DNA of 57,474 bases from Candidatus Omnitrophota bacterium. Its GTDB lineage: Bacteria; Omnitrophota; Gorgyraeia; JABMRJ01. Positions 2,988-33,978 of this stretch are shown piece by piece. The stretch covers positions 1 to 57,474 of the forward strand of contig JABMRJ010000030.1 in assembly GCA_013202745.1 (NCBI GenBank), in the 5' to 3' direction. Under the pieces are notes generated by a model that saw only the letters and a program-made list of their open reading frames with translations, was not told the DNA's origin and did no database searches. Position 1 is the first letter of the stretch. Each line of letters opens with the position of its first letter. Made by a program: the position numbers and the translations under genes.

Positions 2988-3042
2988 CTATTAAATATGG
3001 CGGAAGAATATATGCTCTATATTCAGGATCCACCCCTTCAAT

Positions 3043-5536: not shown

Positions 5537-6779
5537 CTCTTTCTCTTATATGACTCATGAGATACACAATACCAGCTGCTGCAAATATAAAGAAAAAAGG
5601 CAAGAGCGTGGCTTTATACCTGTAGGCTGTGCCAAAATTGGCTATGACCAGTGAATAGGCCGCCGTTGTAACCGCAACGAAAAAGTATATTAAGAAGAAT
5701 CTCTTCCAATTCTTTCTGTGAACAAAACTCCCTATTAAGCCAAAGAGAAAGATTGCATACCAGAGAAACATCTCCGGAATCGTCATTTTCTGAAGGAGGC
5801 CCCTGCACTCCCAAAAAAACGGCCTAAATAAGAAATTGAAGATTCCTTTTGGTAAAAATTTTATTATCTCTATCTCCGAGCTAAGGTCTATCCTGGGACC
5901 GTACAAAGCATTCCCCCCCGAGTAGCCTCTGCGCAGATCTGATATGGTTTCAACATCTTTGAAAAAGTCGATTGCCGGCCTTCTAATCTCACCTCTTTTT
6001 GTCTCATCCGATTCCATAAGGTATGTGACACCGCGTATTGTTAAATCACGTAGATATCTGGGTATGGTGGAAAAAATACCTGCATTTACATATTGGGGAA
6101 CACTGTAGAAAAGGATGATGAAGATGATGGCATAGACTATGTTCTTTTTACACGCCTTTTTTGTCATGTTAACCAGAAAGGAGAGAACGATACCATAGAT
6201 AAGAAAGATAAATATATAACCGCGCAATTCATTCAGCTCCATAAGTAACGGAATAACGAAAGCCAAAACGAGTAGATGATGGGGCCTAAACGGGGTTTGG
6301 AGCCTCGTTATAGCCCATACCGACGCTACTACAATAGCTATACAGAGGATCTCTTTATGGTTCTGGGTGGACCAGAATATTAGAGATGGGAAGAATGTAT
6401 AGAGTAAGGAAGATATCAAGGCTACCCTTTTATTAAATAGCCCTTTTGCCAAATCATATAGCATAAATACCGCCAGGGCACCTATAAAGGCATTTATAAG
6501 CGGAACTATTACCCTGTGGTAACCCATTATGGTGTATACAGCCGCCCTGAAGTAGTCATATTTTGGGAAAGTGCCTGCCATAAGATTATGGGCACTGCCG
6601 GTCTTCCAGGAATTGGCTATATCCATTGCGTTTTTGAAACCTCGTGCGTCAGGAGGTATCACCTTAAGCTGTAATTCCGGGGTCAGCCCGTAATGTATGA
6701 CAAATACAGCTACAACCCTTATAAGGAGAGCGATTAAAAATATATATAGAATAGCACTTCTTTTACCCTGCATACCCAT
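5502..6779 (-). CDS. Polytopic membrane protein, possible GT-C-like glycosyltransferase or polymerase
   Basis: 425 aa, hydrophobic helices throughout, no clear catalytic motif. It sits between two GT-C-like genes. Confidence 0.45.
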   Translation of the reverse strand: MGMQGKRSAILYIFLIALLIRVVAVFVIHYGLTPELQLKVIPPDARGFKNAMDIANSWKTGSAHNLMAGTFPKYDYFRAAVYTIMGYHRVIVPLINAFIGALAVFMLYDLAKGLFNKRVALISSLLYTFFPSLIFWSTQNHKEILCIAIVVASVWAITRLQTPFRPHHLLVLAFVIPLLMELNELRGYIFIFLIYGIVLSFLVNMTKKACKKNIVYAIIFIILFYSVPQYVNAGIFSTIPRYLRDLTIRGVTYLMESDETKRGEIRRPAIDFFKDVETISDLRRGYSGGNALYGPRIDLSSEIEIIKFLPKGIFNFLFRPFFWECRGLLQKMTIPEMFLWYAIFLFGLIGSFVHRKNWKRFFLIYFFVAVTTAAYSLVIANFGTAYRYKATLLPFFFIFAAAGIVYLMSHIRERDGISSNAIDRI

Positions 6780-10165: not shown

Positions 10166-11722
10166 TTACCTCGGGAATCTCTTTAAAATAAATTTTTGTG
10201 ATGGTATCATTTGAGTGGCATATTTAAAAAAGCTATAGCTTAAGCGCATTATCTCTAAAGAACAGATTTTCTTTAGAAGACCGAGTATTTTTGGGTTCTT
10301 CATATAGCGATATACAAACCTGCCCTTGCCTGCCATTAATTTATAGTAGAAAAAGAGTAGCAGCAAATCTATGCTGAACATTGTCGGCGCGTATGGATAT
10401 ATCCTGCCGTAATTGTATCTGCTGCGAGTCAGGAGCGTCTTTTCGACATAATCGTCCTTTATTGTCTCGTCAGTAAGGGCGGTATTGTATAATTCGGTAC
10501 CCGGATAGAACTTCAGGGAGTATACATTTAACAGTATCGATCTTTTGGCAAGTTTGTTCTGCTTTAGCCTTTCACCCAATTGGTTGAAAAAATCGATGTT
10601 TTCAATCCAATCAGATGTTTTTTCATAAGGATTCTGCAGTATCATATCTAGTTTCAAATCGATATTATGCGAAGTTATAAGATCAATCTTATCAAGGAAG
10701 GATTCTCTATTAAAATGTCTTTTGTAGATCTGCTTGTTAACCCTTTCGCTGGCACTTTGCAGACCCAGCTTCATCCATATGATATTGGCCTTATACTTTA
10801 AAAGAATCTTCAGTTTATCTTCCGTAAAAGTAGCAAAAGTGCTATAGAATATAAATGGTAAAGAAATTCTCTTTTGATATTCTGCAATAAACTTTTCAAA
10901 TTCGTCTAAACTTCTTGCAGTAAAATCATCTGACATAAAAAAGACTCTGCTTAAGCCTGGAATGATAGTCTTTGCATATTCGAGTTCTTTCATAACCCGC
11001 TCAGTATCAATACACCTGACATTTTTTCCTGCATCCTTATATATATCCTTAAGCTTGTTATTGGCGCAATAAGTGCAGGAAAATGAGCATCCCTTAATAG
11101 TGAATATCCTATAACCAAAATTGCAGGATAGATGAAGAGCTTCCGGGTCTTCTTCCAGTGAAGTAAACTTCCGGTCAAACAAGGTGTAGGTATTCTTAAA
11201 ATCAAAGCGTGGAATAGGTAGCTCGTTTAGATCGATAAGCTGTGGTAACTCATTTAAAATAACCCTGCCATCCTTAGACCTATATCCCAGGCCAGGAACT
11301 TCAAGCTCATTATCTGTCTCGAGAAAACGCTTAAGGAATGTTTCTCCTTCACCCAGGCATACAAAATCTGTAAATTTTAAAAAACGATGCGGCTCCAGCA
11401 TTACAGGAACTCCGCCTAACACTATCTTTGCTTTGGTATTTTTTGACAAAAAGCTGCTGACTTGTTGTACGCGCTTTAAATTATGTACTGATATAACAGA
11501 TATACCCACAACATTGCAATCTTGGCATTTTTCAGCAAGTATTTTCAGTTGAAAATTGTTCAGCAGGCTTATTGGATTGTCTTTTATTGTAGCACAATGA
11601 ATTACAAAGATGTCGTAACCCGATTTCCTTAAGTAGGATTCGATTGAGCGAAGGCCAAAAGTAAAGAGATTTGATGTAAATGAAACCAGTCCTATCTTTT
11701 TTTTCTTAACAACTTCAGCCAT
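10166..11722 (-). CDS. B12-binding-domain radical SAM enzyme (class B-like)
   Basis: N-terminal Rossmann-like cobalamin-binding-type domain (..KIGLVSFTSNLFTFGLRSIESYLRKSGYDIFVIH..), then ..IKGCSFSCTYCAN.. (CxxxCxxC). Confidence 0.8.
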   Translation of the reverse strand: MAEVVKKKKIGLVSFTSNLFTFGLRSIESYLRKSGYDIFVIHCATIKDNPISLLNNFQLKILAEKCQDCNVVGISVISVHNLKRVQQVSSFLSKNTKAKIVLGGVPVMLEPHRFLKFTDFVCLGEGETFLKRFLETDNELEVPGLGYRSKDGRVILNELPQLIDLNELPIPRFDFKNTYTLFDRKFTSLEEDPEALHLSCNFGYRIFTIKGCSFSCTYCANNKLKDIYKDAGKNVRCIDTERVMKELEYAKTIIPGLSRVFFMSDDFTARSLDEFEKFIAEYQKRISLPFIFYSTFATFTEDKLKILLKYKANIIWMKLGLQSASERVNKQIYKRHFNRESFLDKIDLITSHNIDLKLDMILQNPYEKTSDWIENIDFFNQLGERLKQNKLAKRSILLNVYSLKFYPGTELYNTALTDETIKDDYVEKTLLTRSRYNYGRIYPYAPTMFSIDLLLLFFYYKLMAGKGRFVYRYMKNPKILGLLKKICSLEIMRLSYSFFKYATQMIPSQKFILKRFPR

Positions 11723-13019
11723 TTTGGTTTAATCCTATACTCTTTATCCCCATTAAAAGTCCTAGTGAAAAATAGAATAATACCGCCAGCTGGAGCGAAT
11801 AGAGCGAAACGTCGAAACTGCTATGCAATAGAAAAACTGAGATTCCGCAGAAAAGGCCCAAAAATGCATACCTCAAAAAATCGTCTCTTATCAGCCTCAA
11901 CGATTTGATTGATTCTATAGCCATCTTTATAATAAGCCATAAAAAAGAAAGCAGCCCGAATATCCCGGTCTCAGCTGCTATCTGTAAATAGCAATTGTGC
12001 GCGTACCACAGCCCTCTCTCGCTTTTCTTCGGTACTTTAAATCTTTCATAGTTAGCCATAAATGTATTAAGCCCCTGCCCTGTCAATGGTTTTTCCGCAA
12101 ACATCCTTGTACCTGCTGTCCATATCCTTATCCTATGCTGAATCGAGCCATCGCCAGCTAATTTTTGCTGGAAACCCGCCGGGTCCATAAATATCAGCAA
12201 TGTAAGTATTACAATGCCCACAAGCAAGAGGGTTAAGGTAATACGAGATGTCTTTCCGCCTATTAAAAGAAGCATAAGGATCAGCCCTGCAATACAACTA
12301 ATTTGCGCTGCCCGCGTATAAGTCAGTAATAAGCAATATATAAGCAAAATAGCCAGGATTGCGCTTATCGCCTTTAATTTTAAATTCTTTTTAAAAAAGA
12401 GCGCTATGCCCATAAATGGGAATAAGACCACAGATATCCAGATACTCAATCCATTAGGGAATTTAAAAGGCCCGGTCACCCTCCATTTGTTGTATAGGAT
12501 TTCACCCTCTATAGAACCGAAGCCTGTAAATTTTTGCCACTTGCCGTCTACTGATATCCTATCCAATCCGTACATAGTATATCTTCTTATAAAATCGAAA
12601 CCGGTAATCTTCTGGTAGATAACGTCTACGCAGACAATAAATGCCGAAAGCGCTATTGCCCTGATAATGTTGCGTACAACCCTTCTTTCGCTTACGGCCT
12701 CAAAGACTATAAAATAGAGGAATATATACTCTGTTAGCTTGCGTATAAAGGCACTTATACTTATATCTATATGAGTAGACCAGAATATGGATAGGAAACC
12801 GATCAAATAAAACGCCAGCATAGGCCGGTTTAAACCTGTCTGCGGCAGCCTAAGGCCGCTCTTACCCATAAAGACCCTCTTGAGTATCCAGGATGATATG
12901 GCTATAATGGCACATACCTCTATTGCGGTCTTCGAAAACGGGAGTGAAAATATGAGTATATATAGGGCCCACTCTATCAATATATTTAAGGCGCTTATGA
13001 TCTTATTCTTATCCACCAT
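11715..13019 (-). CDS. O-antigen ligase/polymerase family (Wzy_C domain) membrane protein
   Basis: 434 aa, about 10-12 hydrophobic helices. ..GLWYAHNCYLQIAAETGIFGLLSFL.. is the typical Wzy_C loop motif. Confidence 0.8.
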   Translation of the reverse strand: MVDKNKIISALNILIEWALYILIFSLPFSKTAIEVCAIIAISSWILKRVFMGKSGLRLPQTGLNRPMLAFYLIGFLSIFWSTHIDISISAFIRKLTEYIFLYFIVFEAVSERRVVRNIIRAIALSAFIVCVDVIYQKITGFDFIRRYTMYGLDRISVDGKWQKFTGFGSIEGEILYNKWRVTGPFKFPNGLSIWISVVLFPFMGIALFFKKNLKLKAISAILAILLIYCLLLTYTRAAQISCIAGLILMLLLIGGKTSRITLTLLLVGIVILTLLIFMDPAGFQQKLAGDGSIQHRIRIWTAGTRMFAEKPLTGQGLNTFMANYERFKVPKKSERGLWYAHNCYLQIAAETGIFGLLSFLWLIIKMAIESIKSLRLIRDDFLRYAFLGLFCGISVFLLHSSFDVSLYSLQLAVLFYFSLGLLMGIKSIGLNQNG

Positions 13020-19743: not shown

Positions 19744-21504
19744 TTAAATCTTCTGCAGTTCATAAAGCTGATAAAATTTGGTATCTTTATTTACACAAAG
19801 CTCATCAAAGGTGCCTTCTTCAACTATCCTGCCGTTATCCATTACATATATATAATCTGCCTTTTTAATTGTAGAAAGCCTATGCGCTATAATTAAAATT
19901 GTTTTTTCACCTTTAAACTCCTGGAGGTTTTCATGAATCCTCTGCTCAGACTTGCTATCCAAAGAACTTGTCGCCTCGTCCAGTATGAGAAGTTTTGTAT
20001 TTTTGTATAATTCACGGGCTATCGTTATCCTCTGCCTCTGTCCTCCTGAAACATCGAGCCCGTTGTCGCTGAGCATTCCGTCTTCCTTCTCAGAAAGGCC
20101 GTTTACAAAACTTGTTATATGCGCAATCTCTATCACTTTCTTTAACTTATCGTAGTCAATATTCTCATCCCATAAAGATATATTATCCTTTATGCTTGCA
20201 TTAAAGACTATATCTTCTTGAGTAACATATCCGATATTTTCTCTTAATGCCTTGATATTCAGTCTCTTGTAATTCACGCTGCCAAACATAACTTGTCCAC
20301 TTATCGGCCTCAAAACACCTGCAACCATATTTGCGATAGTCGATTTGCCGGAACCGGAATGGCCAACGACAGCTACTACCGACTTCGGCTTAATCTGAAT
20401 ATTTACATCATCAAGAGCTCTCTTGCCGTTTGGAAAGGTCAGGTTGACATCCTTGAATACTATCTCTCTATCGAATTCCGGCAAGGCGCCATCCAGATTC
20501 AGCTTCTCTTTGTTTTCGTTCAACTCTTTTTCCAAGCTATTAAAGACATCTATGCTGCCCGTTGCTGCCAGAAATTTCCTGTAGTGTAGCTGCATATTTA
20601 AAAACTGCCTTGCAACCTGCAGGAAGAGAAATATAAGGAATATCACTTCGCTCACACTTTTTCTTAGAATGCTCACATGATAAAATAAAATGGCTACTAT
20701 AACAAGTACGAGTAAAGGCTCAAAGATATTTTTAGCCAAAGCCTGCAGCAGGTACATCCTATACCGCAAGCAAGCAATCTTTTTATTTTCTTTTTCCACT
20801 ATTTTTGAAATCCTGCCATGTGAAGATGTAGCTTTGAAATACTTAAATTTGGTTAAGGCCTGAATAGTGGCGGACTGGAATTTACCGTATGAATGACTCA
20901 ATTCCCCGGATAACTTATTTGTAATTAAATTAAAGCCCCTGGCAAGGATAATAAGTAAGGGGCTTACAGTTGCAAGGATCAGCGTAGCCTTGGGGTTTAG
21001 TAATATCGATAATGCGATATAGACTATTGCATAGAAGGCACAGCTCAGCGTCTGTGAAAATGTGCTGAAGGACTCAACTACACAGCTTACCTCCCGCATA
21101 AGCGCGTTATTTATATAGCCTACCTCCTTTTGGAGCAGATAAAGATAGTCTGCTTCAAGGATATTCTTAAGCACTCTCTGTCTTAGCGTAATAGTTAGAT
21201 TAGAAGAAATCCTGCCGAAATACCTTGCGTAAGCTATAAGAAATACGGACCTTAACACAAAAAAGATCAGTATGAGCCACAAGAATGCCGTAAAGGAAAA
21301 AACTATACCCAAACTGCCGAATATTGCCTTTAATATTTGAGACAGTCTGTTTTCGCCAAACCCATCCTGCAGTATAGGCAAAAAGAGGGTTATACCTATA
21401 CCTTCAAAAAAAGCAACTACAGACATAAAGATCAAAAGGTAATAGAGCTTTCGCCCGAGAAGTTTTCTAAATTGCGTAAAATATTCAACAAAATATTTAA
21501 TCAT
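19744..21504 (-). CDS. ABC transporter, fused permease/ATPase half-transporter (MsbA/PglK-like; candidate lipid-linked glycan flippase or exporter)
   Basis: N-terminal six-helix TMD. Walker A is ..GHSGSGKST.., the signature is ..VSGGQRQRITIAREL.., Walker B is ..LLILDEATSSLD.., and the H-loop is ..IAHRLS.. Confidence 0.9.
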   Translation of the reverse strand: MIKYFVEYFTQFRKLLGRKLYYLLIFMSVVAFFEGIGITLFLPILQDGFGENRLSQILKAIFGSLGIVFSFTAFLWLILIFFVLRSVFLIAYARYFGRISSNLTITLRQRVLKNILEADYLYLLQKEVGYINNALMREVSCVVESFSTFSQTLSCAFYAIVYIALSILLNPKATLILATVSPLLIILARGFNLITNKLSGELSHSYGKFQSATIQALTKFKYFKATSSHGRISKIVEKENKKIACLRYRMYLLQALAKNIFEPLLVLVIVAILFYHVSILRKSVSEVIFLIFLFLQVARQFLNMQLHYRKFLAATGSIDVFNSLEKELNENKEKLNLDGALPEFDREIVFKDVNLTFPNGKRALDDVNIQIKPKSVVAVVGHSGSGKSTIANMVAGVLRPISGQVMFGSVNYKRLNIKALRENIGYVTQEDIVFNASIKDNISLWDENIDYDKLKKVIEIAHITSFVNGLSEKEDGMLSDNGLDVSGGQRQRITIARELYKNTKLLILDEATSSLDSKSEQRIHENLQEFKGEKTILIIAHRLSTIKKADYIYVMDNGRIVEEGTFDELCVNKDTKFYQLYELQKI

Positions 21505-24359: not shown

Positions 24360-25613
24360 CTAAGAATTTATTATTCTCCTAAAAATCTCTATTTCGTATT
24401 CTATCCTCTCATCCCAGCTTTTCAAAAGCCCTGACGATAGGCCGCGCGTCAGCACGGATAGCTCTTTTATTCTGTCATTATTTTTTAAAAGGCGCTCCAA
24501 CACTCCCGGGAGCTCCTCTAATATCCGGCCCTTGTCTATAAAGATGGCTTTATCCGATAATATCTCGGCTGTATCCAAATCGGTATGCCCTGTTTCATCT
24601 TTTTGGAATGTTACTATACACTTCCCTGCATTTATCGCTTCGAGCACTGTGTTGCACAGATTACCCATAGAACTCAATGAGACATATATATCTGTCGAAT
24701 GGAAATACTTGTAAACAATATTATGCTCCACTGCGTCTTCTATCTTTACAAAATCTTCCAGCCTATTCTTGCCAATCTCTTCTAACAGCGCGCTTTTTAG
24801 CGGGCCGTGGCCGACCATAACTGCGAAGAAATTGCTGCATCTTTTCCTTAATTCACTCAACGCCTTTACAAATAACACCGGGTTCTTGTCTTCGGCCAAC
24901 CTACTTAAAAATAGTATAATTTTGCGCTCTTTGGGAATATTATATTTTCTTCGCAAATAGCTTGTGTCATCCTTACTCAATCCGCTATCCTCGGTCCTAT
25001 CTACGCCATTCAATAAAATTTCATACGGAATTCTTTTATTAACAAATTTTTTAAAAAAGTGTTTAGCATCACTGCCGTCCTTTGAGCATATTATATATTT
25101 AAAGGGTGCTTTGAAGCTTAGATAACGAAGCGGCTCTTTGAGCCATTTCTTAAAGCCCTCCATCCTTTTTATGAGAAGACATACACCAAAAAGCCTTACT
25201 ATTACTTTTTTCCTAAAAAAAGTAGCGAATATCGCGCCGTAAACTATATTTACCCTATCTACATAAACAAGATCGTAGTCATTCTTCATAAAGATTGACA
25301 GGCAAGAAAAGAATTGCTCAATTTCATTTATGACCCTGCTTAGATACCTGCCAAGGATCGCTACATTATTGTAAGGGAGTACGTGAAACTTTACATCAGA
25401 GTTATCAAATTTATGAAATTCTCTTTTATCTATGCCCCTATGTGGGATTTTGCCCAGACATATTGCATCTACTTCCCACTCCTTATCCAGGCCCTCCAAC
25501 AATTTATAATAACCCGGCATACCAGTGGGCTGCCAGGTTTTAGTCTTAAATGATTCTAGCATAGAGGTATATATTCTAGTAATGACGAGTATCTTCGGCA
25601 TAACAGCCCTCAT
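24360..25613 (-). CDS. Glycosyltransferase, GT-B (GT4-like)
   Basis: ..LFLSRLAEDKNPVLFVKAL..VGHGPLKSAL..GNLCNTVLEAINAGKCIVTF.. Confidence 0.6.
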   Translation of the reverse strand: MRAVMPKILVITRIYTSMLESFKTKTWQPTGMPGYYKLLEGLDKEWEVDAICLGKIPHRGIDKREFHKFDNSDVKFHVLPYNNVAILGRYLSRVINEIEQFFSCLSIFMKNDYDLVYVDRVNIVYGAIFATFFRKKVIVRLFGVCLLIKRMEGFKKWLKEPLRYLSFKAPFKYIICSKDGSDAKHFFKKFVNKRIPYEILLNGVDRTEDSGLSKDDTSYLRRKYNIPKERKIILFLSRLAEDKNPVLFVKALSELRKRCSNFFAVMVGHGPLKSALLEEIGKNRLEDFVKIEDAVEHNIVYKYFHSTDIYVSLSSMGNLCNTVLEAINAGKCIVTFQKDETGHTDLDTAEILSDKAIFIDKGRILEELPGVLERLLKNNDRIKELSVLTRGLSSGLLKSWDERIEYEIEIFRRIINS

Positions 25614-27249
25614 GAAACTTAGTTATATTATTCAAGTAACATCTTGTTAAAAGTGAATTTATATGTTTAGTCTTTGTCAGATTTTTGATAAAAGCCGTAT
25701 AGCCATAAATACCATATCTTGCAAGGTCATCCTTAAAATAGTCTAAAAATTTCTTATATAGGTGATAATACCGCAATATCCACCTTAAAAAGGGTATATT
25801 TCGCCTCTTATAAATATTTTCCATAAGCATGCCGGCAAGACTCTTTCTGTCCATTTTCGGATTAAAGAGACCGTATTTATCGGAATCGGCAAGATACCTG
25901 GTGTATAATTTTTTATTGAGTTTAAAACCATAAAGCATGTCTTTCCAAAAATCCATAAACTCCACATCCCATAAAGGAAGTCTCCAATCATAACCCCAAA
26001 AGTCATAAACCCTTACAGAATTGACGATAAATTTGGATTGACGTTCCTGCCATTCCCAATATTCATAACTGGATGCCATATCCTGAACCGTCTCTTTCTT
26101 TAAATCTCTAAGAGAGTTTCTGATCTTTCTTTTAAGCATCGCGTTTAGATCTTTATCCTTCAATTTAACCGGCCAGAGACCATAATGTTTCTGCATAATA
26201 TTAGTAACCAGCTCCTTTTCGGTAAGTTTCTTTGTAGAATCAAATATATATTTCAAATGGCCGCCTGAGATAAAATCTCCAGTGTGGCCAGGCACAAAAA
26301 CAGCATTATCTGGAATAAGGGCGTTATCGCGTAATTCCTTTACTGCAGCCCAGTCATCAATGTGAGGTAGCGAGGAGAGGTTATCCGCCGAATTAAAATA
26401 AGATCTGAAGTCATTATGATTATACCATTCCCGCCATTTCCTCTCGGAATACTCTACAAAAAACCATTTATAGCCCAACGCCTTAGCTATGCGTTCACTC
26501 TTTAACGAATCTTTATTATTCTTTCGGCCGTACGAAAAACATATAACATTATCATATCCTGCCCTCTTTAGCATTGAAGCAACCAGTCTCGAATCGAGTC
26601 CGCCGCTTAAAGGGACGACGATGGTCCTTCCATTAACTCCGGATACCAGTCTTTCAAAAACATTCTGGGTAACCTTGTCCAATTCGTCAATGAGGGTATC
26701 TATAGGCTTGTGAGAAAGCTTGTGGCTTAAATAACGATAGTAGCGCTCTTTCTTAAAAATACTCTCACCATCTTCTGCTCCGCCAAGATATAGGCACTCA
26801 CCGGCCTGCAATTGTTTTATATTTTCAAAAAGTGTATCCTGGCCCGTTACATACCCTGTGCATAAAAATTCGTCTCTTGACAGTTTATCCGGGATAAGGC
26901 AGTCACATTTCTCCCTAATCCACAATGCCCGGTCTGATATATAAAAGCGATTACCTTTATTAACATAAAAGAGGGGGATGCTCCGAATGTGGTCAACTGC
27001 GGCAATACAGCTCCCCCCATCCCTTACTATGACAATAAAATTGCCGTTTAATGCTTTTATCTTCTCTTTAAAGGTGCCGAAAGTCAATTTGCCATTATGT
27101 AAAAAGGTCTTTGCTAATGACTCGGCATTAAGGAATAGGCCGTTTAAAAACCCGGAGCCGCTAACCCATATCTCTTTATCTTCTGCCTTTTGCTGATACC
27201 AGGCATATCTCTTCCTATCATCAAAATGCAGCTTTATATTAATATCCAT
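25576..27249 (-). CDS. Asparagine synthase (AsnB)-like ATP-dependent amidotransferase lacking the N-terminal catalytic Cys
   Basis: PP-loop ..VVPLSGGLDSRLVASML... The protein starts MDINIKL rather than the MC(G) expected for an Ntn glutaminase. Confidence 0.75.
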   Translation of the reverse strand: MDINIKLHFDDRKRYAWYQQKAEDKEIWVSGSGFLNGLFLNAESLAKTFLHNGKLTFGTFKEKIKALNGNFIVIVRDGGSCIAAVDHIRSIPLFYVNKGNRFYISDRALWIREKCDCLIPDKLSRDEFLCTGYVTGQDTLFENIKQLQAGECLYLGGAEDGESIFKKERYYRYLSHKLSHKPIDTLIDELDKVTQNVFERLVSGVNGRTIVVPLSGGLDSRLVASMLKRAGYDNVICFSYGRKNNKDSLKSERIAKALGYKWFFVEYSERKWREWYNHNDFRSYFNSADNLSSLPHIDDWAAVKELRDNALIPDNAVFVPGHTGDFISGGHLKYIFDSTKKLTEKELVTNIMQKHYGLWPVKLKDKDLNAMLKRKIRNSLRDLKKETVQDMASSYEYWEWQERQSKFIVNSVRVYDFWGYDWRLPLWDVEFMDFWKDMLYGFKLNKKLYTRYLADSDKYGLFNPKMDRKSLAGMLMENIYKRRNIPFLRWILRYYHLYKKFLDYFKDDLARYGIYGYTAFIKNLTKTKHINSLLTRCYLNNITKFHEGCYAEDTRHY

Positions 27250-27263
27250 AATTTACACCTGAA

Positions 27264-28175
27264 TTAATTCTTTTTGTAAAAATCACTGCTATACAGATCC
27301 TCTCCGGGATGTTCAAAATAGAGACTGCATAGATCCAGATATTCTCTTGCAGGTAATACAAAGAAGGCCTCTGCGTATCCCGGCCTGTTTGTCTTTAGAA
27401 AACGGCTGTTGAAGGCATTCAGCCCGCGTGTATAATGCGCCCAGTCTCTGCTTTTCTTTCTCGCCTGACAGAGGTCTATTAAATCTGTCTTTTTGTCCAT
27501 CACGTCTGTTATATCTACCACTACATTGGGCAGCACCGTAGAGTAGACCTGGTAAGCCCAGATATCAAAATTTAAATCTCTGGAAGACTTAAACGATTCG
27601 TAAAAGAGCTGCGCGCTGCGCCTGTGATCATCATGATCATCGGCAATAAAAGGCAGGAATATTATGTCCGGCCTCAAATCCATAAAGAGATCTTTAAGCC
27701 TCTTTATGGCATTTTCATCTACCTTAATCCCCCCGCTTAGATACCGCCAAAATTCTATCTCTGTGCCTAAACTTCCCGCTACTCTCTTTGCGTCTTCTTC
27801 AAATTCTAATGCCTGAGACGCTGGCGTTTCTCCTTCTTTGTCGATTGAAGACCATTTATCGCTTGAAGTCAAGTATACTACCTTAACTCTGGATCCGTTT
27901 TCCATCAGCTTAAGCATAGCCCCTCCTGATGATATGATATCGTCATCCGGGTGCGGGGCTATCACCAGTGCCCTTTTCGCGTCAGGTTTTGGCATTATGA
28001 TAGGATTTATATTCTGAGAAAAACGCTTTGTCTCCAAAACCTTTCCCATGACATTCAGGTCTTTTAAAGAGATCCAGTCCTTCAAGATAAACTTGTAATG
28101 AGATCTGGATGCCGCAAGCATTGCAAGTTTCCTGATAAAATCTTTTAGTCGCGCCAGTTTAGCCGATAATGTCAT
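27264..28175 (-). CDS. PIG-L/LmbE-family N-deacetylase
   Basis: ..LVIAPHPDDDIISSGGAMLKL.. and ..ADDHDDHRRSA.. Confidence 0.8.
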   Translation of the reverse strand: MTLSAKLARLKDFIRKLAMLAASRSHYKFILKDWISLKDLNVMGKVLETKRFSQNINPIIMPKPDAKRALVIAPHPDDDIISSGGAMLKLMENGSRVKVVYLTSSDKWSSIDKEGETPASQALEFEEDAKRVAGSLGTEIEFWRYLSGGIKVDENAIKRLKDLFMDLRPDIIFLPFIADDHDDHRRSAQLFYESFKSSRDLNFDIWAYQVYSTVLPNVVVDITDVMDKKTDLIDLCQARKKSRDWAHYTRGLNAFNSRFLKTNRPGYAEAFFVLPAREYLDLCSLYFEHPGEDLYSSDFYKKN

Positions 28176-28773
28176 AGCTCTTCCTTTTGCTTATTATTTT
28201 GACCCTTTCGCTGTCCTTCTTCACAATGCACATGGGACCTATCTTAACCACAGAAAATGCGAAGATCTCCTTGAACCCGGCAGAGATAATGCCCCTCTTT
28301 GAATGGAGATTACCTTCAGCGCAACATATATAAACCCTCTTTATGCCTTTCTTGAAATGGATAGATCTTGCATTCCGCAGACCGTTTTTATAAAAGCCTT
28401 TTCCCCTGTGTTTTGGGGCGGTAAAGCAGTCCCATACATAACCATCGCCTTGCCTTAAAACAAGCTTGTTATCAAATACCCATGGTATCTCTATCTCTTC
28501 ATCCGGAATTGAGCTCCATAAATATGAAGCTATGGAATTTTTTTTATCGAAGAAACCGTAACAGCGGTGCCCCTTCTCGCTATGGGCTTGGAATCTCTGA
28601 AACCTCTTCTTATCCGCAAATATGGGATCTATCCCGAAACATTCATTTGGAATTTCCTTAAATACACAGCCGTCCATATCCATATCTTCAATTAGGCAAT
28701 CTGTATCTACGTCAGCCTGAAAAAAGCTGCCTTTATAAAACCTGAATAAGTAGTCGGTTAATCTCTTTATCAA
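28159..28773 (-). CDS. GNAT-like acyltransferase
   Basis: ..DCFTAPKHRGKGFYKNGLRNA.. resembles GNAT motif A. Size (204 aa) fits. Confidence 0.5.
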   Translation of the reverse strand: MIKRLTDYLFRFYKGSFFQADVDTDCLIEDMDMDGCVFKEIPNECFGIDPIFADKKRFQRFQAHSEKGHRCYGFFDKKNSIASYLWSSIPDEEIEIPWVFDNKLVLRQGDGYVWDCFTAPKHRGKGFYKNGLRNARSIHFKKGIKRVYICCAEGNLHSKRGIISAGFKEIFAFSVVKIGPMCIVKKDSERVKIISKRKSYDIIG

Positions 28774-29786
28774 ATGATCCTCTCACTCCTTTTTATCCAG
28801 TGTGCCACATTCTTTCCTAAAAGTGACGGTGAGATCGATAGGATTGCTCTTTTCAGCGAAGCACCCTGACTTTCTTTCTTTTCTTTGCCTATCCTGCCCG
28901 GATTAGGGGTAGAGTAATAATAGATATCGCTTGGCCTTCCGCCAAAATTTGTCTTAAACCGGTAGACCGTCCCCCCTTCTCTCGACTCTCCCATATCCAG
29001 CAGGCCTATTCCATTATCCAGGCAGAGCTTCATCGTCTCCCATATCAGAAAATCGTTCGGCGCAAACTTACGATGACTCTCTAAAGAAGACTGAAAAGGA
29101 TAGATAGCTATATCCTTTGAAAATAAAATAAGGATACCGGCTATAACTCTATTATCCTTCTTTGCTACAATAAGCTCTGTTTTATCCTTCATCTTCTCAG
29201 CTATATTTTTGAAAAATGTGTAAGAATGCGCCGGTAATCCCTTCCGGAGCATGCTCGATACATATACCTTGTAAAACTCCTTTAAATTGCAGAATCCCTT
29301 CTCTGCTGCCAGTTCGGATCTTACGGCCTTGCGGATCATATTTCTGGTTTTATCTCTCAAAGATCTCCACGTTGATTCAGCATCCTGCGCCAGATCTATT
29401 ATAACGGTCTTTTTTATCAACTCTCCCAGGTCCGTATCTACACGTCGGTTTCCGGATGTCACAAGGGCCGACTCGATCCCATTTCGCCGGCAAAAAGAGA
29501 TCATATGCAAAAAAAGTTCGTTTTGTATATCGCTACTATCGGCTACACAGCCGTATCTTAAGGAGTACAACTTCTTCCTTCCTCTTATGCTCTTCGTTAC
29601 ATAAGTGGGCAAGACTCCTTCTATATCACCGCCGCTTCCCGAGGCGATAAAGAAGAATGTCTTTATCTTATAAGTATCCTCCAGTATTTGGCGCCATGCA
29701 TAGAGGTTCATCGGAGGGTTATATGAAAACCTGCCGAGGTATGCATCCCAGCTATTCTTATCAGCTTTTGTTGCTAGTCTTATCAT
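28770..29786 (-). CDS. FemAB / BioF2-like (Acetyltransf_6) family acyl- or aminoacyl-transferase
   Basis: 338 aa. ..NSWDAYL..NLYAWRQILEDTY.. at the N-terminus and ..GGTVYRFKTNFGGRP.. near the C-terminus are typical of the FemAB/CelD-like GNAT superfamily. Confidence 0.6.
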   Translation of the reverse strand: MIRLATKADKNSWDAYLGRFSYNPPMNLYAWRQILEDTYKIKTFFFIASGSGGDIEGVLPTYVTKSIRGRKKLYSLRYGCVADSSDIQNELFLHMISFCRRNGIESALVTSGNRRVDTDLGELIKKTVIIDLAQDAESTWRSLRDKTRNMIRKAVRSELAAEKGFCNLKEFYKVYVSSMLRKGLPAHSYTFFKNIAEKMKDKTELIVAKKDNRVIAGILILFSKDIAIYPFQSSLESHRKFAPNDFLIWETMKLCLDNGIGLLDMGESREGGTVYRFKTNFGGRPSDIYYYSTPNPGRIGKEKKESQGASLKRAILSISPSLLGKNVAHWIKRSERII

Positions 29787-31314
29787 TATAGTATTTTTCT
29801 ATATCTACGCTATCCCGATTTTTTGATAAATTTATGCTTTTCATTAACGCTGAATAGAGGACTTCGGTCTCTTTCGCGCTTGCGGGTTCTCTCTTCTTAG
29901 AGTTGTAATCACTCCAGCTTAAATTTATGGACGAGGCCTTGAGCGCTGCCAGGTATCTCATACCATCCTTACGGCGTTTTTCTCTATCCTCTTTTGTATC
30001 CCCCTTGCATAATCTAACCAGAAGCGGCCTTAGCTCTTTCCACGATTCAACCGTATATACGTGAGGTAGAAATCTAAAATTATTATGCATGCCGAATGAT
30101 ATAACAGGCACGCCATAGACAGCCGATTCAACACCCAGGGTACTCGTAATAACTGCCACGGCCTTCGCATCTTTTGCAAGCTCGAAGATATATACATGAG
30201 GCGGCACCATCACAACATTGGGTATTTCAAGAAGCGTTGAATAAAAATCTCTGGGCCTTCTTCCTATGCTGGCAAGATGTTCTTTAACAACCAATAATGT
30301 GCCGGCCGGAAGATTTTTTGCCAGTAGTTCTATAAGTGCCATCTGCTCATTGAATTCAGGGCTGAGCATACTGAGTGCGGTTTCGGGTTCAACATGGAGT
30401 GGATAGAGCACATAAGACTTACCCTTAAGCTTTTCCGGGGATATCAAATTCAGCTTATGCGCATCTCTAATCTCTCTGTGCATCCTATAGATATATTTTA
30501 TATCCTCTGAAAGCCTGTAATTGCCCATCGAAATTATCTTTTTATGTCTTTTAAAAAGATGGTTCATTGATCGAGCTATAACTCTCTCTAAAAGGTTCCA
30601 TATCGAAGAATACTGCATATATTTTTTATAGTTCATAGCCGTTACAGGAAGACGTTTTATCTCATTCAATTCCTTATGTTCAATATCACTGAATGCATTC
30701 TTTGTTAGATCAAAATTCTCTTTTAATGCGGGAAAAGAATAAAATTCATCTATGGCCCAATAAAAGTATGATTGATGCTTGGCCGATGCTAAAGCCCTTA
30801 TGGGTATCCCTCTTTTTCTGGCTATGGCAGAAAAAGTCTTTCCCACTACTCCGGAAGTAACTCCGATAATTAAATCCGGGTTAGTCCTTTCTATCTGGTC
30901 TTCCCAGAACCTCATGCATTTGTTGAAAATATTTACTGATTTAATGTAGGTAGCTTTCTGGCTCAATTTCGATCTTGGATGGCCGGTTCCCGCTGATGAA
31001 AAACCGCGCCCTAAGTGCCTATCTGCTTGCAGGGCATCAGACACCAAAATACCGTATTTATCCTCATATTGTCTCGCCTGCCTGTATATATCCTCAGTCG
31101 GGCCAGTGCAATTGTCATATTCCTGGAAAAAATGGCTTGTTGCTATGAATGAATCTATTATCCCAGATTTATCATTGCGCTTCCAATACTCAATGTCCTG
31201 TATATTAACACATATAAAATGTACCTTAGTATTATAGTGCTCTTTAAATTTTTTTGACAGAGGGAGCCATAGCCAATTGCGAATCGAAACTCCCCACACT
31301 ATTATATTTTTCAT
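29761..31314 (-). CDS. Capsule_synth (KpsS/KpsC)-like protein; candidate CMP-ulosonic acid transferase
   Basis: ..SYVLYPLHVEPETALS.. and ..LLVVKEHLASIG.. resemble the PLQVxxDxQ and KxHP regions of KpsS/KpsC-type enzymes. I moved the start to M42 (MKNIIVWGVS, ATG 31314-31312), which forms an ATGA overlap with the upstream stop. Confidence 0.5.
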   Translation of the reverse strand: MKNIIVWGVSIRNWLWLPLSKKFKEHYNTKVHFICVNIQDIEYWKRNDKSGIIDSFIATSHFFQEYDNCTGPTEDIYRQARQYEDKYGILVSDALQADRHLGRGFSSAGTGHPRSKLSQKATYIKSVNIFNKCMRFWEDQIERTNPDLIIGVTSGVVGKTFSAIARKRGIPIRALASAKHQSYFYWAIDEFYSFPALKENFDLTKNAFSDIEHKELNEIKRLPVTAMNYKKYMQYSSIWNLLERVIARSMNHLFKRHKKIISMGNYRLSEDIKYIYRMHREIRDAHKLNLISPEKLKGKSYVLYPLHVEPETALSMLSPEFNEQMALIELLAKNLPAGTLLVVKEHLASIGRRPRDFYSTLLEIPNVVMVPPHVYIFELAKDAKAVAVITSTLGVESAVYGVPVISFGMHNNFRFLPHVYTVESWKELRPLLVRLCKGDTKEDREKRRKDGMRYLAALKASSINLSWSDYNSKKREPASAKETEVLYSALMKSINLSKNRDSVDIEKYYNDKTSNKS

Positions 31315-32102
31315 ACTTGGCCTTTCCGGAGCACCTGTTTTTGATCTGTAAAACGCGCATCCAGCCTGCTTGTTCGGGCATGCCTTAGGTTCTTTCGTGC
31401 ATCCTGTAGTGCTGCAATAATTAAAATCACAGCCCATATGAATATGGAAATTGCAAATATTATATATAAAACCTTATTCATCCCTGTAAAGGTTGCGGCT
31501 AAGAGCAAAGATATCTTAAAATCTGTCTGAAAATTGAATATCTTCTTCATGGGCAGCCTGGTAGACTTAAGAGGATTCAGCTCCTTGGTATTGCCTCCGG
31601 AGCCTCTTTCGATCTCGATCCACCGTTTAAAAAAGGAGATTCTATTTATTGCAAAAAATGCAAAGAGCAGCGATACCGATATAGATGTGCCGACAGCGAT
31701 ATAAAAGATATCGCCTTCCTTAATAAAGAGGCCAATCGCAATAGATAGCGGTAATAGCGTCTCAATGAGCGCATCCACCATGCCATCCAAAAATTTTCCA
31801 TAATATGAAGCGCTATTAGATACACGCGCAATGTTTCCGTCAGCAAAATCGAAAAACCAGTATAATATGTAAAATAATGTCCCCAAGTAAAATACCTTAT
31901 CACTCATGGCAAAGAAAAGGAGAGATATTAAACCCACAACAAGACCAAAGATGGTAGCGAGATTTGCGCTGACTCCTGCCCCCATCAGCAGATAAGCAAG
32001 ATAGAAAGAACCTGGCCTAAATATATTACGCAATATAAACGAATTATTATCTGCTTTTTTATTATAGGATTCTTTTATTTTTCGCATTGAATATCTTCTC
32101 AT
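31311..32102 (-). CDS. CDP-alcohol phosphatidyltransferase family membrane protein
   Basis: Exact family motif D-x2-D-G-x2-A-R-x8-G-x3-D-x3-D in ..DFADGNIARVSNSASYYGKFLDGMVDAL... Several TM helices. Confidence 0.85.
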   Translation of the reverse strand: MRRYSMRKIKESYNKKADNNSFILRNIFRPGSFYLAYLLMGAGVSANLATIFGLVVGLISLLFFAMSDKVFYLGTLFYILYWFFDFADGNIARVSNSASYYGKFLDGMVDALIETLLPLSIAIGLFIKEGDIFYIAVGTSISVSLLFAFFAINRISFFKRWIEIERGSGGNTKELNPLKSTRLPMKKIFNFQTDFKISLLLAATFTGMNKVLYIIFAISIFIWAVILIIAALQDARKNLRHARTSRLDARFTDQKQVLRKGQV

Positions 32103-32115
32103 CTTATTTTAACCT

Positions 32116-32835
32116 CTATAACTTCCTCTTTTTAGCCATAAATTCTGCAAATTCAAAATCCAGCTTTTCGTCTATATCAACAGATCTCTCTCTTGGCATC
32201 AAATAAGCCGCCGTCATTTTGGTTATAAGCGCATTTTCTTTAAATAGATTGTCTCTCCTTGTCGCGTATATTGCGCCGTTTGGCACCACCATTTTATTAA
32301 GATAGCGCCGAAGCGCCCTCTTCCCGTTCCATCTTCCGGGGATATAGGGTTCTGCCTTATTCCTGCCTTTGAGTGTAAACATCCATTCGGGATATTCCGT
32401 AATCTCTACAGCCGAAAAGACGGAGCCTAAATTTTTGTTTCTTAAAAGAAGCTTAATACATTCGTCTATGTCGCTTCCTTTACAAAATGGCGATGTAGGC
32501 TGCAGGGTGACGATAATATCAATCTTCTTGCCTTCCTTCTTTTCGATAAAGTAAGCTGCGTGTTGGGTAACCAGCGTGGAGGCGCAATCCCCTGAGATAT
32601 TCTCTGGCCGACTAAAAGGAACTTCCCCGCCGTATTTTAACGCAGCAGCCTTTATCTTTGGATGGTCTGTTGAGACTATCACCCTGCCCAATAGCCTGCT
32701 TTCAAGCGCTGCCTTTATCATATACGAAATAAGCGGCTTGCCGCACAGCCGTTTTATATTCTTAAGCGGCAGCCTTACGGAACCGCCTCTTGCGTGTATC
32801 ACCCCTCTGATATTAGCATACTTTGTATTCTTCAT
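32116..32835 (-). CDS. Acylneuraminate (NulO) cytidylyltransferase, NeuA/LegF-like
   Basis: ..VIHARGGSVRLPLKNIKRLCGKPLISYMIKAALES.. (CTP_transf_3 pattern). Confidence 0.8.
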   Translation of the reverse strand: MKNTKYANIRGVIHARGGSVRLPLKNIKRLCGKPLISYMIKAALESRLLGRVIVSTDHPKIKAAALKYGGEVPFSRPENISGDCASTLVTQHAAYFIEKKEGKKIDIIVTLQPTSPFCKGSDIDECIKLLLRNKNLGSVFSAVEITEYPEWMFTLKGRNKAEPYIPGRWNGKRALRRYLNKMVVPNGAIYATRRDNLFKENALITKMTAAYLMPRERSVDIDEKLDFEFAEFMAKKRKL

Positions 32836-33978
32836 TTATAATTTACCCTGAAAATTTTTTGTAGTCTCCTTATAGGCCTCCCACTGCCCTACATCCAGCC
32901 ACGATTTTTCACTTACGGGGTAGACACCGATCTTACATTTCTTTCTTTTAAGTTTTTTGATAAAGTCGGTAATGTGAAAAGTTCTGTCTCTTGGAATATA
33001 CCTTAATGTCTTCTTATCTACAAGATACATCCCTGTATTGACCAGGAAATCATATTCGGGTTTTTCCTCTATCTTTTTTAACTCCCCTCCGGAATTTATG
33101 TCTACGACTCCATAAGGGACTACAAAATGCTGCATTGAACATATTATTGTTAAGTCGTAACCATTCTTTTTATGAAAGCTATATATGTCATCATATCTGG
33201 CTTTTATAATAGTGTCGCAATTTGACAAAAAGAATGTATTCGAAATGGTCCGGGGTAAAAGTTTTAATCCCCCTACTGTTCCAAGCGCCCTATCTTTTTC
33301 GTAAATATATTTTACCTTGTATTCTGCTCCGCTATTATCAAAATACGACTTTATCATCTCGCCCTTGTAACCTATAATAAAATAGATGGCGTCTGTTATA
33401 TGCTCCCTGAAATTATCTATTATCAACTCGATGACAGGCTTATCACCGACAGGTATTAAGGCCTTCGGCAATATTTTAGTAAAAGGATCGAGCCGGCTGC
33501 CTTGGCCGCCGGCCATTACAACGAGGGGTATCTTAAGGGCCTGCGCCTTACTTGGCATGCCGGCTTCATCCTTTATCACATCGCTCCAGAAGAGAAGATT
33601 TACAATTCTTTTGTTTTCATCTACTATAGGTAAGGAATTTACACCTGCCTCCAGCATAATCTTCCTTATCCTTCTTTTGGATGTATACCTGTCAACATAG
33701 ACGGGGTTATCATTATAGATCTTATCAACCTTTGCGCCCAAATCACCGTCAGTAAGTATCCAGCGCCGTATGTCTCCGTCTGTAATAGTGCCTATGAGCT
33801 TACGTTTCTTATCGGTAAGAAAGAGTATCTTCCTGGATCCCTTATCCATATGCTTCATGGCATTCTTTATTGTATATTTGCCTGTTATAAAAAGATCTTC
33901 CAATTTTTTTGTCATATTTTCACCATTCCCTTTATTGCCAGTTTTATATTCTATGTAACCTGGTGCCTGAGACACCAC
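32836..33978 (-). CDS. CBS-domain nucleotidyltransferase (PtmE-like sugar-1-phosphate nucleotidylyltransferase)
   Basis: N-terminal tandem CBS-like region (..LIGTITDGDIRR.., ..NSLPIVDENKRIVNLL..), then ..VVMAGGQGSRLDPFTKILPKALIPVGDKPVIE.. Confidence 0.8.
   Translation of the reverse strand: MVSQAPGYIEYKTGNKGNGENMTKKLEDLFITGKYTIKNAMKHMDKGSRKILFLTDKKRKLIGTITDGDIRRWILTDGDLGAKVDKIYNDNPVYVDRYTSKRRIRKIMLEAGVNSLPIVDENKRIVNLLFWSDVIKDEAGMPSKAQALKIPLVVMAGGQGSRLDPFTKILPKALIPVGDKPVIELIIDNFREHITDAIYFIIGYKGEMIKSYFDNSGAEYKVKYIYEKDRALGTVGGLKLLPRTISNTFFLSNCDTIIKARYDDIYSFHKKNGYDLTIICSMQHFVVPYGVVDINSGGELKKIEEKPEYDFLVNTGMYLVDKKTLRYIPRDRTFHITDFIKKLKRKKCKIGVYPVSEKSWLDVGQWEAYKETTKNFQGKL

Follow-up and report, generated by a model that had tools for sequence, protein, structure and literature searches.

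The window analyzed here is a 57,474-nucleotide contig (JABMRJ010000030.1) from a Candidatus Omnitrophota bacterium (GCA_013202745.1; 1.67 Mb in 195 contigs, 91.5% complete), and all of its genes lie on the minus strand in a single operon-like array. Within this array, a cytidine diphosphate (CDP)-alcohol phosphotransferase (CDPOH) is encoded between a cytidine monophosphate (CMP)-nonulosonate (NulO) synthetase and a GT-B protein of the PF05159 (KpsS/KpsC) family. We favor, tentatively and at somewhat less than an even chance, the interpretation that CDPOH is a putative membrane head-group transferase decorating the NulO glycan, and with the same reserve we regard the three genes as a possible activation-and-transfer core of an operon for a glycan of legionaminic acid (Leg)- and pseudaminic acid (Pse)-type NulOs. 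Bacterial sialic-acid-like sugars affect recognition by phages, predators, and immune systems, and few enzymes for their transfer or decoration are known. The transfer step of O-methyl phosphoramidate (MeOPN) has never been demonstrated biochemically, even in Campylobacter. A small membrane enzyme located between a CMP-sugar synthetase and a transferase, with phosphoramidate or sulfate activation genes next to it in its relatives, is a concrete candidate for this missing chemistry.

In the proposed mechanism, the cytidylyltransferase makes CMP-NulO, as directly supported by its family, and the PF05159 enzyme would use CMP-NulO to load the NulO onto a membrane-bound glycan intermediate at the cytoplasmic face. 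CDPOH, presumably a membrane-embedded, cytidine-nucleotide-dependent phosphotransferase, would take a small anionic head group from a donor in which it is linked to CMP (CMP-O-P(O)(O-)-X) and place it on a hydroxyl of either the NulO or a neighboring sugar of the same intermediate, thereby releasing CMP, and would act just ahead of or after its translationally coupled partner, the PF05159 enzyme. In the relatives, the donor would be made next door: cytidine diphosphoramidate (3'-phosphate) via Cj1415-Cj1418-type genes or, alternatively, the product of a nucleotidyltransferase-methyltransferase fusion or a compound linked to a Sat/CysC/pyruvate-kinase-like cassette. The only donor candidate in the present genome would be the Sat-pyruvate kinase (PK) cassette on a separate contig, C8. 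The finished glycan would be flipped by the MsbA/PglK-type ABC transporter and then probably passed on by the Wzy_C-family ligase. We favor this model because CDPOH is closest to AF2299 and keeps the cytosine-binding motif, because its coupling to donor pathways recurs on deep branches of its clade and with varied gene order, because the methyltransferase-bearing phosphoramidate loci (L008, L011, and L020) showed no other candidate transferase, and because the locus has an undecaprenyl diphosphate (Und-PP)-type architecture.

An earlier sequence-only reading of the window had offered two options, a dedicated phospholipid acceptor for a NulO-containing polymer or a phospho-alcohol substituent on the glycan. 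Synteny in the relatives supports the substituent, whereas the phospholipid acceptor is weakened and kept as the main rival. It retains some probability because we found no soluble CDP-linked donor pathway in the genome.

The three genes

All three open reading frames were found where the sequence-only reading had placed them (Table 1), and their Pfam scores all exceed the gathering thresholds. The cytidylyltransferase matches PF02348 (CTP_transf_3, E 7.5e-24), and its top NCBIfam match is PseF (TIGR03584; 142 bits, E 2e-41), under the cut-off of 205.7. Its orthologues, with 58-73% identity, occupy the same position in the related loci L004, L005/L006/L007, and L020. Its stop codon and the CDPOH start are separated by 13 nt. 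CDPOH matches PF01066 (E 4.1e-10, 40.7 bits; cut-off 22), and the start giving 263 residues is backed by the N-termini of its homologues. The signature DxxDGxxAR-x8-G-x3-D-x3-D is complete, as had been claimed: the motif reads D85-F-A-D88-G-N-I-A-R93-x8-G102-K-F-L-D106-G-M-V-D110, with G89 and A92 also in place. The PF05159 protein matches Capsule_synth (E 1.9e-8, 34.6 bits; cut-off 20). Its longest open reading frame begins at 31437, while the ATG at 31314 overlaps the TGA of CDPOH as ATGA, as noted before. The resulting N-terminus, MKNIIVWG, is the consensus start of ten homologues and supports the ATG at 31314.

The cytidylyltransferase and the PF05159 transferase add new members to known kinds, and the PF05159 part of the arrangement is ordinary. 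CDPOH represents a clade not yet characterized within a well-known superfamily, and its glycan context is unusual and conserved.

CDPOH is an accessory enzyme closest to AF2299

The genome holds two further PF01066 genes. One, on contig C187 directly after rimO, is a clear PgsA (151 bits on TIGR00560, cut-off 109.1), and the other, located between lepB and der, is PgsA/ClsA-like. CDPOH itself scores 21.7 bits on TIGR00560 (pgsA) and 17.4 bits on pssA. CDPOH is thus neither the PgsA nor the PssA of the genome but an accessory paralogue, and we rejected it as the housekeeping enzyme; nothing indicates the PgsA-type chemistry that the sequence-only reading had brought up.

Classification by a profile against the PDB and by structure gave the same ranking. 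The top NCBIfam matches of CDPOH are archaetidylinositol-phosphate synthase (54 bits, cut-off 180), phosphatidylinositol phosphate (PIP) synthase (40.6 bits, cut-off 170), and IPCT/DIPPS (31 bits), all of them far under cut-off, so that CDPOH is not assigned to the archaetidylinositol-phosphate or PIP synthases. When a profile built from 25 sequences was searched against the PDB, AF2299 came first (68 bits, 1e-17), followed by PIP synthases (46-47 bits), IPCT-DIPPS (35 bits), PgsA (28 bits), and then CEPT1 and PssA. The AlphaFold model (mean predicted local distance difference test, pLDDT, 90.2) consists of six long helices and juxtamembrane helices, and Foldseek retrieved AF2299 (1e-5), RsPIPS, IPCT-DIPPS, and MtPgsA1. 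CDPOH is therefore closest to AF2299, then to PIP synthases and IPCT-DIPPS, and not to PgsA or PssA.

AF2299 and DIPP synthase process no lipids; they use soluble CDP-alcohols and have a small polar pocket for the donor substituent, whereas in PIP synthases JM1, TM2, and TM5 flank a lipid groove (PMC4634129). The cytosine ring is recognized by a P(D/N)xx(T/S) motif located where TM1 begins (PMC4634129). CDPOH carries A-N47-L-A-T50 in this place, which is kept throughout the close clade, including the members beside Sat cassettes. The six-transmembrane fold, the full catalytic motif, and the N-x-x-T at the start of TM1 are common to CDPOH, AF2299/IPCT-DIPPS, and the bacterial PIP synthases (RsPIPS and MtPgsA1), and CDPOH further shares an R-x-x-S juxtamembrane helix with AF2299 and DIPPS. 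CDPOH lacks a cytosolic N-terminal domain. The likeness to all of these enzymes stops after TM4, and the acceptor side formed by TM5-TM6 is unrelated; the alignment to PIP synthases ends ahead of the TM5/TM6 arginines that bind inositol phosphate. Y100, K103, and an NPLKS loop are invariants specific to the clade. The known enzymes serve osmolyte or lipid synthesis, whereas CDPOH is found in a glycan operon.

In several clade members (P0007-P0009, L009, L021, and L012-L016 in the clade alignment), Asn or Gly stands in place of the fourth aspartate of the signature, which is the proposed general base, whereas the other three aspartates are invariant. Judged from the alignment, this loss may point to a nucleophile without need of deprotonation or to a base located elsewhere.

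A PIP-synthase-like enzyme using inositol phosphate was downgraded as a candidate role, since myo-inositol-1-phosphate synthase (MIPS) is present in this genome but missing from four of the five genomes of relatives that carry the clade. In the present genome, the MIPS-like gene (2851-4137) stands on contig C111 (574-5879) beside a DegT-type aminotransferase gene (1718-2854, assigned by eye only) and downstream of an uncharacterized open reading frame for 514 residues (4335-5879). The MIPS and aminotransferase genes may belong to an aminocyclitol-type route, apparently unrelated to lipid synthesis.

A rare clade tied to NulO loci

The clade is rare. At E <= 0.001, only five other CDPOH-like clusters occur in a collection of 5.8 billion sequences; pattern scans gave 9 loci in 185,579 species genomes and 10 in metagenome contigs, and a close homologue was present in three of the 401 genomes of the phylum. 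About 20 loci are present in the public data overall. We annotated the flanks of the relatives' loci by BLAST against labeled window proteins and by Pfam and NCBIfam scans. All loci of the core clade carry NulO synthesis genes. Among the four more distant loci (L023 and L027-L029), NeuB-type genes are found in three (L023, L028, and L029), while the readable part of L027 contains dehydratase-type sugar genes only and no NulO genes. In a still more distant subclade (L012-L016), CDPOH stands directly behind GT4 genes in other glycan loci.

The conservation of the arrangement extends to the partner genes. CDPOH is followed by the PF05159 gene, with overlaps or few-base gaps, in the window and in L004, L005/L006, L008, L010, and L020, and the close PF05159 subfamily is confined, among the 401 genomes, to genomes with a close CDPOH (G000 and G213). 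Downstream of the PF05159 gene, L004, L006, L008, and L010 share the order FemAB-like, GNAT, PIG-L; the AsnB-like gene comes directly after PIG-L in L006 and after two FkbM methyltransferase genes in L004 and L010, and is unmatched in L008. Upstream, orthologues of the CBS-CBS-nucleotidyltransferase with 60-77% identity adjoin the NulO cytidylyltransferase in L004, L005, L009, L011, and L020; we take this protein to be PtmE-like.

In three loci, the PF05159 gene after CDPOH is replaced by a gene for a protein of 668-689 residues (L009, 9823-11829; L011, 10764-12833; L021, 2138-2739). The full-length copies from L009 and L011 are 39% identical, and the family has no Pfam or NCBIfam match. A distant kinship with KpsS found no support (BLASTP E 0.35). 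The family is a candidate for a further transferase of the NulO or of the head group.

Donor-making cassettes adjoin CDPOH in relatives

In 13 of about 19 independent loci of relatives, CDPOH abuts or adjoins a donor-making gene, and the cassettes are of three types. A complete phosphoramidate set resembling Cj1418/1417/1416/1415 stands beside CDPOH in L008, L009, L011, L020, L027, and L028, and a partial one in L023, where the contig ends inside the kinase gene. The set comprises a glutamine kinase (880-912 bits on NF004508), a second gene with gamma-glutamyl-CDP-amidate hydrolase as its top match, an NTP_transf_3 cytidylyltransferase, and a PRK05541-type homologue of adenosine 5'-phosphosulfate (APS) kinase. 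The second type, for 3'-phosphoadenosine 5'-phosphosulfate (PAPS), consists of an APS kinase, a sulfate adenylyltransferase (Sat), and a shortened pyruvate-kinase-like protein; it abuts CDPOH in L004, L010, L022, and L027 and lies beside it on the opposite strand in L029. In the third type, a fusion of an NTP-transferase and an S-adenosylmethionine-dependent methyltransferase directly follows CDPOH (L025, 10762-12246; L026, 4100-5599), which suggests a methylated CDP-linked head group. The order of CDPOH and the cassette genes varies among the loci, and overlaps of a few bases are frequent.

The phosphoramidate cassette of L008 additionally encodes a methyltransferase and an SGNH/GDSL-like membrane protein, both with homologues in L011 and L020. 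Because no TagF/LicD-type family occurs among the genes scanned in these three loci, CDPOH is the only candidate for a CDP-dependent transferase seen in them. The argument is weaker for L009, L027, and L028, in which the SGNH/GDSL-like and methyltransferase genes are replaced by a formyltransferase-like gene and one for a protein without a family match. As for the SGNH/GDSL-like protein (L008, 7895-9142), it is membrane-anchored, carries FGDSYTF and GVGNYGADQ blocks, and is constant in the methyltransferase-bearing phosphoramidate cassettes (L008, L011, and L020). With its SGNH/GDSL blocks, this protein of 415 residues was rejected as the real phosphoramidate transferase.

In Campylobacter jejuni, Cj1415-Cj1418 make the MeOPN donor, and the transferases Cj1421/Cj1422 are known by genetics only (PMC11800397, PMC3907429). 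The relatives of CDPOH directly adjoin complete cassettes of this kind, while the window and its genome lack one. Another difference from C. jejuni is that the inferred transferase of the relatives is a membrane CDP-alcohol phosphotransferase and that the glycan is NulO-based instead of a capsule anchored by 3-deoxy-D-manno-octulosonate (Kdo). MeOPN-like genes beside an AF2299-like CDP-alcohol phosphotransferase have been described in a preprint on Borgs, in which the two were not linked (10.1101/2024.11.05.622173). We found no literature assigning such a CDP-alcohol enzyme to NulO or phosphoramidate glycans. What is new here is the link of the clade to NulO loci and to one particular PF05159 subfamily, and its occurrence with PAPS cassettes as well as without any cassette.

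In L027 (9905-20282), a single CDPOH is followed by both a phosphoramidate and an APS-kinase/Sat/pyruvate-kinase cassette, and the locus also contains two genes of the PF00884 sulfatase family.

Donor supply in the Omnitrophota genome

Several observations weigh against head-group transfer by CDPOH in the present genome. The window and the 64%-identical L005/L006/L007 loci have no donor cassette next to CDPOH. No Cj1418-type glutamine kinase was found in the genome, at its 91.5% completeness, with no NF004508 match above 21 bits; APS kinase has no family match in the genome, and no synthase for CDP-glycerol, CDP-choline, or CDP-ethanolamine was recognized there. CdsA is present, which makes CDP-diacylglycerol the sole CDP-alcohol with a visible synthase. 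The cassette Sat and CysC appear genuine: they reach the NCBIfam cut-offs of the usual ATP-dependent enzymes and retain the QTRNP, HRxH, and GRDHAG motifs, giving adenosine-based PAPS, which a cytidine-specific enzyme is not expected to use. Finally, when 25 CDPOH sequences were placed in a maximum-likelihood tree, the cassette-less members and those of the phosphoramidate and Sat types were mixed among each other on short internal branches, from which either the enzyme may tolerate different head groups or its function may be constant and independent of the cassettes.

As for candidates of a soluble, TagD/LicC-like CDP-alcohol synthase in this genome, none was found; the search gave only IspD, KdsB, GlmU, RmlA, GlgC, CoaD, NadD, RibF, RfaE-like, and two extra NeuA/SpsF-like proteins (assigned by eye). 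CDPOH was likewise rejected as a universal phosphoramidate transferase, since this genome, G213/L010, and the genome of L012 lack a Cj1418-type kinase.

The 3.2-kb contig C8 (1-3202), located outside the window, encodes a Sat whose 5' end is cut by the contig end, a shortened pyruvate-kinase-like protein, and a GT4. This Sat keeps the QTRNP, HRGH, and GRDHAG motifs, and the Sat/PK-like fragment is 64% identical to the cassette directly preceding CDPOH in L004. In the nearest relative genome (G213, the source of L010, from the same GTDB family), a Sat-PK cassette lies directly upstream of CDPOH. Contig C8 is probably another piece of a surface-glycan locus.

An alternative that takes the Sat/PK cassette as the donor source is that CDPOH is a sulfuryl transferase, or a broad transferase of small tetrahedral groups that would use the isosteric phosphoramidate in sister loci. 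Sat, possibly acting on CTP regenerated by the pyruvate-kinase-like enzyme, would make a nucleoside 5'-phosphosulfate, from which CDPOH would move sulfate to the NulO glycan. We regard this as very unlikely, even though the four Sat-type loci L004, L010, L022, and L029 show no canonical sulfotransferase among their scanned genes, three of them have CDPOH directly after the PK-like gene, the cassette types are interleaved in the tree, L027 combines both cassettes with one CDPOH, and a Sat-PK pair is present in this genome. Sat and CysC have the scores and motifs of ordinary ATP-dependent enzymes, and the clade retains the cytosine-recognition motif. No CDP-alcohol phosphotransferase is known to transfer sulfate, and the proposal of sulfate transfer is purely conjectural. 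A wider version, which we consider quite unlikely, would make the clade a new membrane-embedded class that moves small tetrahedral anionic groups from nucleotide-anhydride donors onto NulO glycans, phosphoramidate in the sister loci and perhaps sulfate here and in the Sat/PK-type loci. If true, the clade would comprise the missing phosphoramidate transferase outside Campylobacter and a new kind of sulfotransferase.

A further alternative needs no cassette. CDPOH might use CMP-NulO itself, with CMP leaving and the C1 carboxylate in the role of the beta-phosphate, and deliver the NulO to a lipid phosphate, e.g., polyprenyl phosphate, for a periplasmic GT-C enzyme. The cassette-less core indeed consists only of the cytidylyltransferase, CDPOH, and PF05159 genes, a dispensable fourth aspartate in some members would suit a phosphate nucleophile, and there are three PMT_2 GT-C genes in the window. 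This idea is extremely improbable: it has no precedent, other loci show no conserved PMT_2 genes close to CDPOH, and it leaves the coupling to donor cassettes unexplained.

The PF05159 protein and the question of a lipid primer

The sequence-only reading had taken the KpsS-like neighbor as a possible pointer to a dedicated phospholipid acceptor, by comparison with the lipid linker of group 2 capsules. The family resemblance stands. The AlphaFold model (pLDDT 77.8) shows two Rossmann-like halves, and its top Foldseek matches are all GT-B proteins (UDP-GlcNAc 2-epimerases, a polysialyltransferase, and UGTs) with low TM-scores, as expected because the two domains sit at differing angles. With a profile of 11 sequences, the sole matches in the PDB were KpsC (6mgd, 7e-7; 8fux, 8fuw, 6mgc, and 6mgb) and the Kdo-transferase domain of WbbB (5fa0, 4e-4), in line with the anticipated GT-B fold and kinship with CMP-Kdo transferases. 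KpsS and KpsC (GT107) of E. coli and Neisseria and WbbB (GT99), which are retaining beta-Kdo transferases, belong to the same Pfam family, and the segment aligned with KpsC includes PLHVEPE, KEH, and ITSTLG-E blocks. All NCBIfam scores are under cut-off, among them a weak match to the BFO_1060 family (E 0.004).

A KpsS-type linker system, in contrast, did not hold up. The PF05159 gene is the only one in the genome, which thus has no KpsC partner. The ABC transporter, which had been connected with the export of the polymer, is a fused MsbA/PglK-type half-transporter instead of a KpsMT-type capsule exporter, no KpsMT/KpsED-type exporter was found among the genes of the window, to which this search was confined, and no Poly_export or Wzz-type genes were seen in scans of the window. 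The donor pathway of the window makes Leg/Pse-type NulOs instead of Kdo; KdsB is encoded on contig C64. Moreover, PF05159 genes have repeatedly been described beside NulO genes and interpreted as coding for NulO transferases that act on sugars: Gtr59, KpsS1, and KpsS2 of Acinetobacter, together with related proteins of E. coli O108/O165, Photobacterium, Bacteroides, and Sphingobium, were assigned to this role, and the authors remark on the adjacency to the NulO module (PMC4487303). In Tannerella, members of the BFO_1060 family were proven by genetics to be transferases of Pse/Leg derivatives (PMC5420450). "KpsS-like" beside NulO genes alone therefore does not imply a capsule-type lipid linker, which corrects a likely over-reading.

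Since there is neither a KpsC partner nor a KpsMT-type exporter, the simplest reading of the sequence is that the PF05159 protein is most likely a CMP-NulO-dependent nonulosonate transferase. As in the Acinetobacter (KpsS1/KpsS2/Gtr59) and E. coli O108/O165 loci, its gene adjoins a NulO module ending in a cytidylyltransferase; the likeness to the Acinetobacter and Tannerella enzymes comprises the GT-B fold and the inferred CMP-NulO donor, and is more distant for the BFO_1060-family enzymes of T. forsythia (PMC5420450) than for the Acinetobacter proteins. Unlike these, the 517-residue subfamily of the window carries an N-terminal half peculiar to it and shows translational coupling to CDPOH, and no CDP-alcohol transferase has been described in the Acinetobacter and Tannerella loci.

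The architecture of the locus bears on whether a lipid primer is required. The Wzy_C protein, of the O-antigen ligase/O-oligosaccharyltransferase family (PF04932, E 3.2e-24), argues for a polyprenol-linked glycan transferred en bloc. No initiating phosphoglycosyltransferase was found among the scanned genes of the window. Elsewhere in the genome, contig C41 (1664-3573) has two side-by-side Bac_transf (PF02397) matches in frames of about 460 residues, one scoring 206 bits, which are likely initiating enzymes for undecaprenyl phosphate-linked glycans. The Wzy_C ligase, the PglK/MsbA-type ABC transporter, and the two Bac_transf genes together fit an Und-PP-linked glycan, for which a special phospholipid primer would not be needed.

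A dedicated phospholipid acceptor nevertheless has to be weighed, although we consider it unlikely. CDPOH would join CDP-diacylglycerol to a small alcohol or to a glycan or NulO, the PF05159 enzyme would add the first NulO, as KpsS adds Kdo to phosphatidylglycerol, and a GT4 would extend the chain before the MsbA-type transporter flips it. CDP-diacylglycerol would be supplied by CdsA, and the missing initiating enzyme in the window would be accounted for. In six loci the PF05159 gene is tightly coupled to CDPOH, and no genome was seen to have the close PF05159 subfamily without CDPOH. An MsbA-type ABC gene recurs near CDPOH, adjacent in L029 and two genes off in L023/L027. The top NCBIfam families, archaetidylinositol-phosphate and PIP synthases, use lipid donors, and the interleaved tree suits a constant, cassette-independent function. 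The distant members L012-L016 directly behind GT4 genes also fit, an arrangement that resembles the mycobacterial pgsA1-pimA operon.

Against such an acceptor, the housekeeping PgsA already keeps phosphatidylglycerol on hand, KpsC is missing from the genome, and the window showed no KpsMTED-type export. With MIPS found in only one of five relatives' genomes, the clade is unlikely to have a PIP-synthase-like role, and the repeated tight coupling to donor cassettes, seen on deep branches and with different gene orders, is not easily explained by insertion at a module boundary. The PF05159 enzymes of other NulO loci were assigned to sugar acceptors (PMC4487303), and the closest structure, AF2299, handles no lipids (PMC4634129). 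Were the lipid-anchor interpretation true, it would represent a new way to prime surface glycans on a dedicated phospholipid.

Other features of the locus

Besides the genes of Table 1, the window encodes many tailoring enzymes as well as GT4 and GT2 glycosyltransferases. The FemAB-like, GNAT, PIG-L, and AsnB-like genes form a module (25576..29786) that probably remodels the N-acyl groups of the NulO.

Table 1. Features of the 57,474-nucleotide window
Feature	Position	Strand	Basis or remark
Pse-type NulO pathway	57474-51161	minus	
Leg-type NulO pathway	44940-32116	minus	ends with the cytidylyltransferase; PF05159 gene two genes away
CBS-CBS-nucleotidyltransferase, conserved upstream neighbor	32836..33978	minus	CBS and NTP_transferase domains
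LegF/PseF-like CMP-NulO synthetase (cytidylyltransferase), 239 aa	32116-32835	minus	PF02348, TIGR03584
CDP-alcohol phosphotransferase (CDPOH), 263 aa	31311-32102	minus	PF01066, full signature motif
PF05159 (KpsS/KpsC-family) GT-B protein, 517 aa	29761-31314	minus	ATGA-coupled to CDPOH
FemAB-like	28770-29786	minus	Pfam/NCBIfam matches
GNAT	28159-28773	minus	Pfam/NCBIfam matches
PIG-L deacetylase	27264-28175	minus	Pfam/NCBIfam matches
AsnB-like	25576-27249	minus	Pfam/NCBIfam matches
Conserved protein of unknown family, 368 aa	21517-22623	minus	no Pfam, NCBIfam, or PDB sequence match
MsbA/PglK-type ABC half-transporter	19744-21504	minus	fused ABC_membrane and ABC_tran
Wzy_C (O-antigen ligase/O-oligosaccharyltransferase family) protein	11715..13019	minus	PF04932

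Homologues of the ABC transporter lie near CDPOH in L020, L023, L027, and L029. The conserved protein of 368 residues is always found directly upstream of an MsbA-type ABC transporter; its counterpart in L004 is 53% identical and likewise precedes an ABC_membrane gene.

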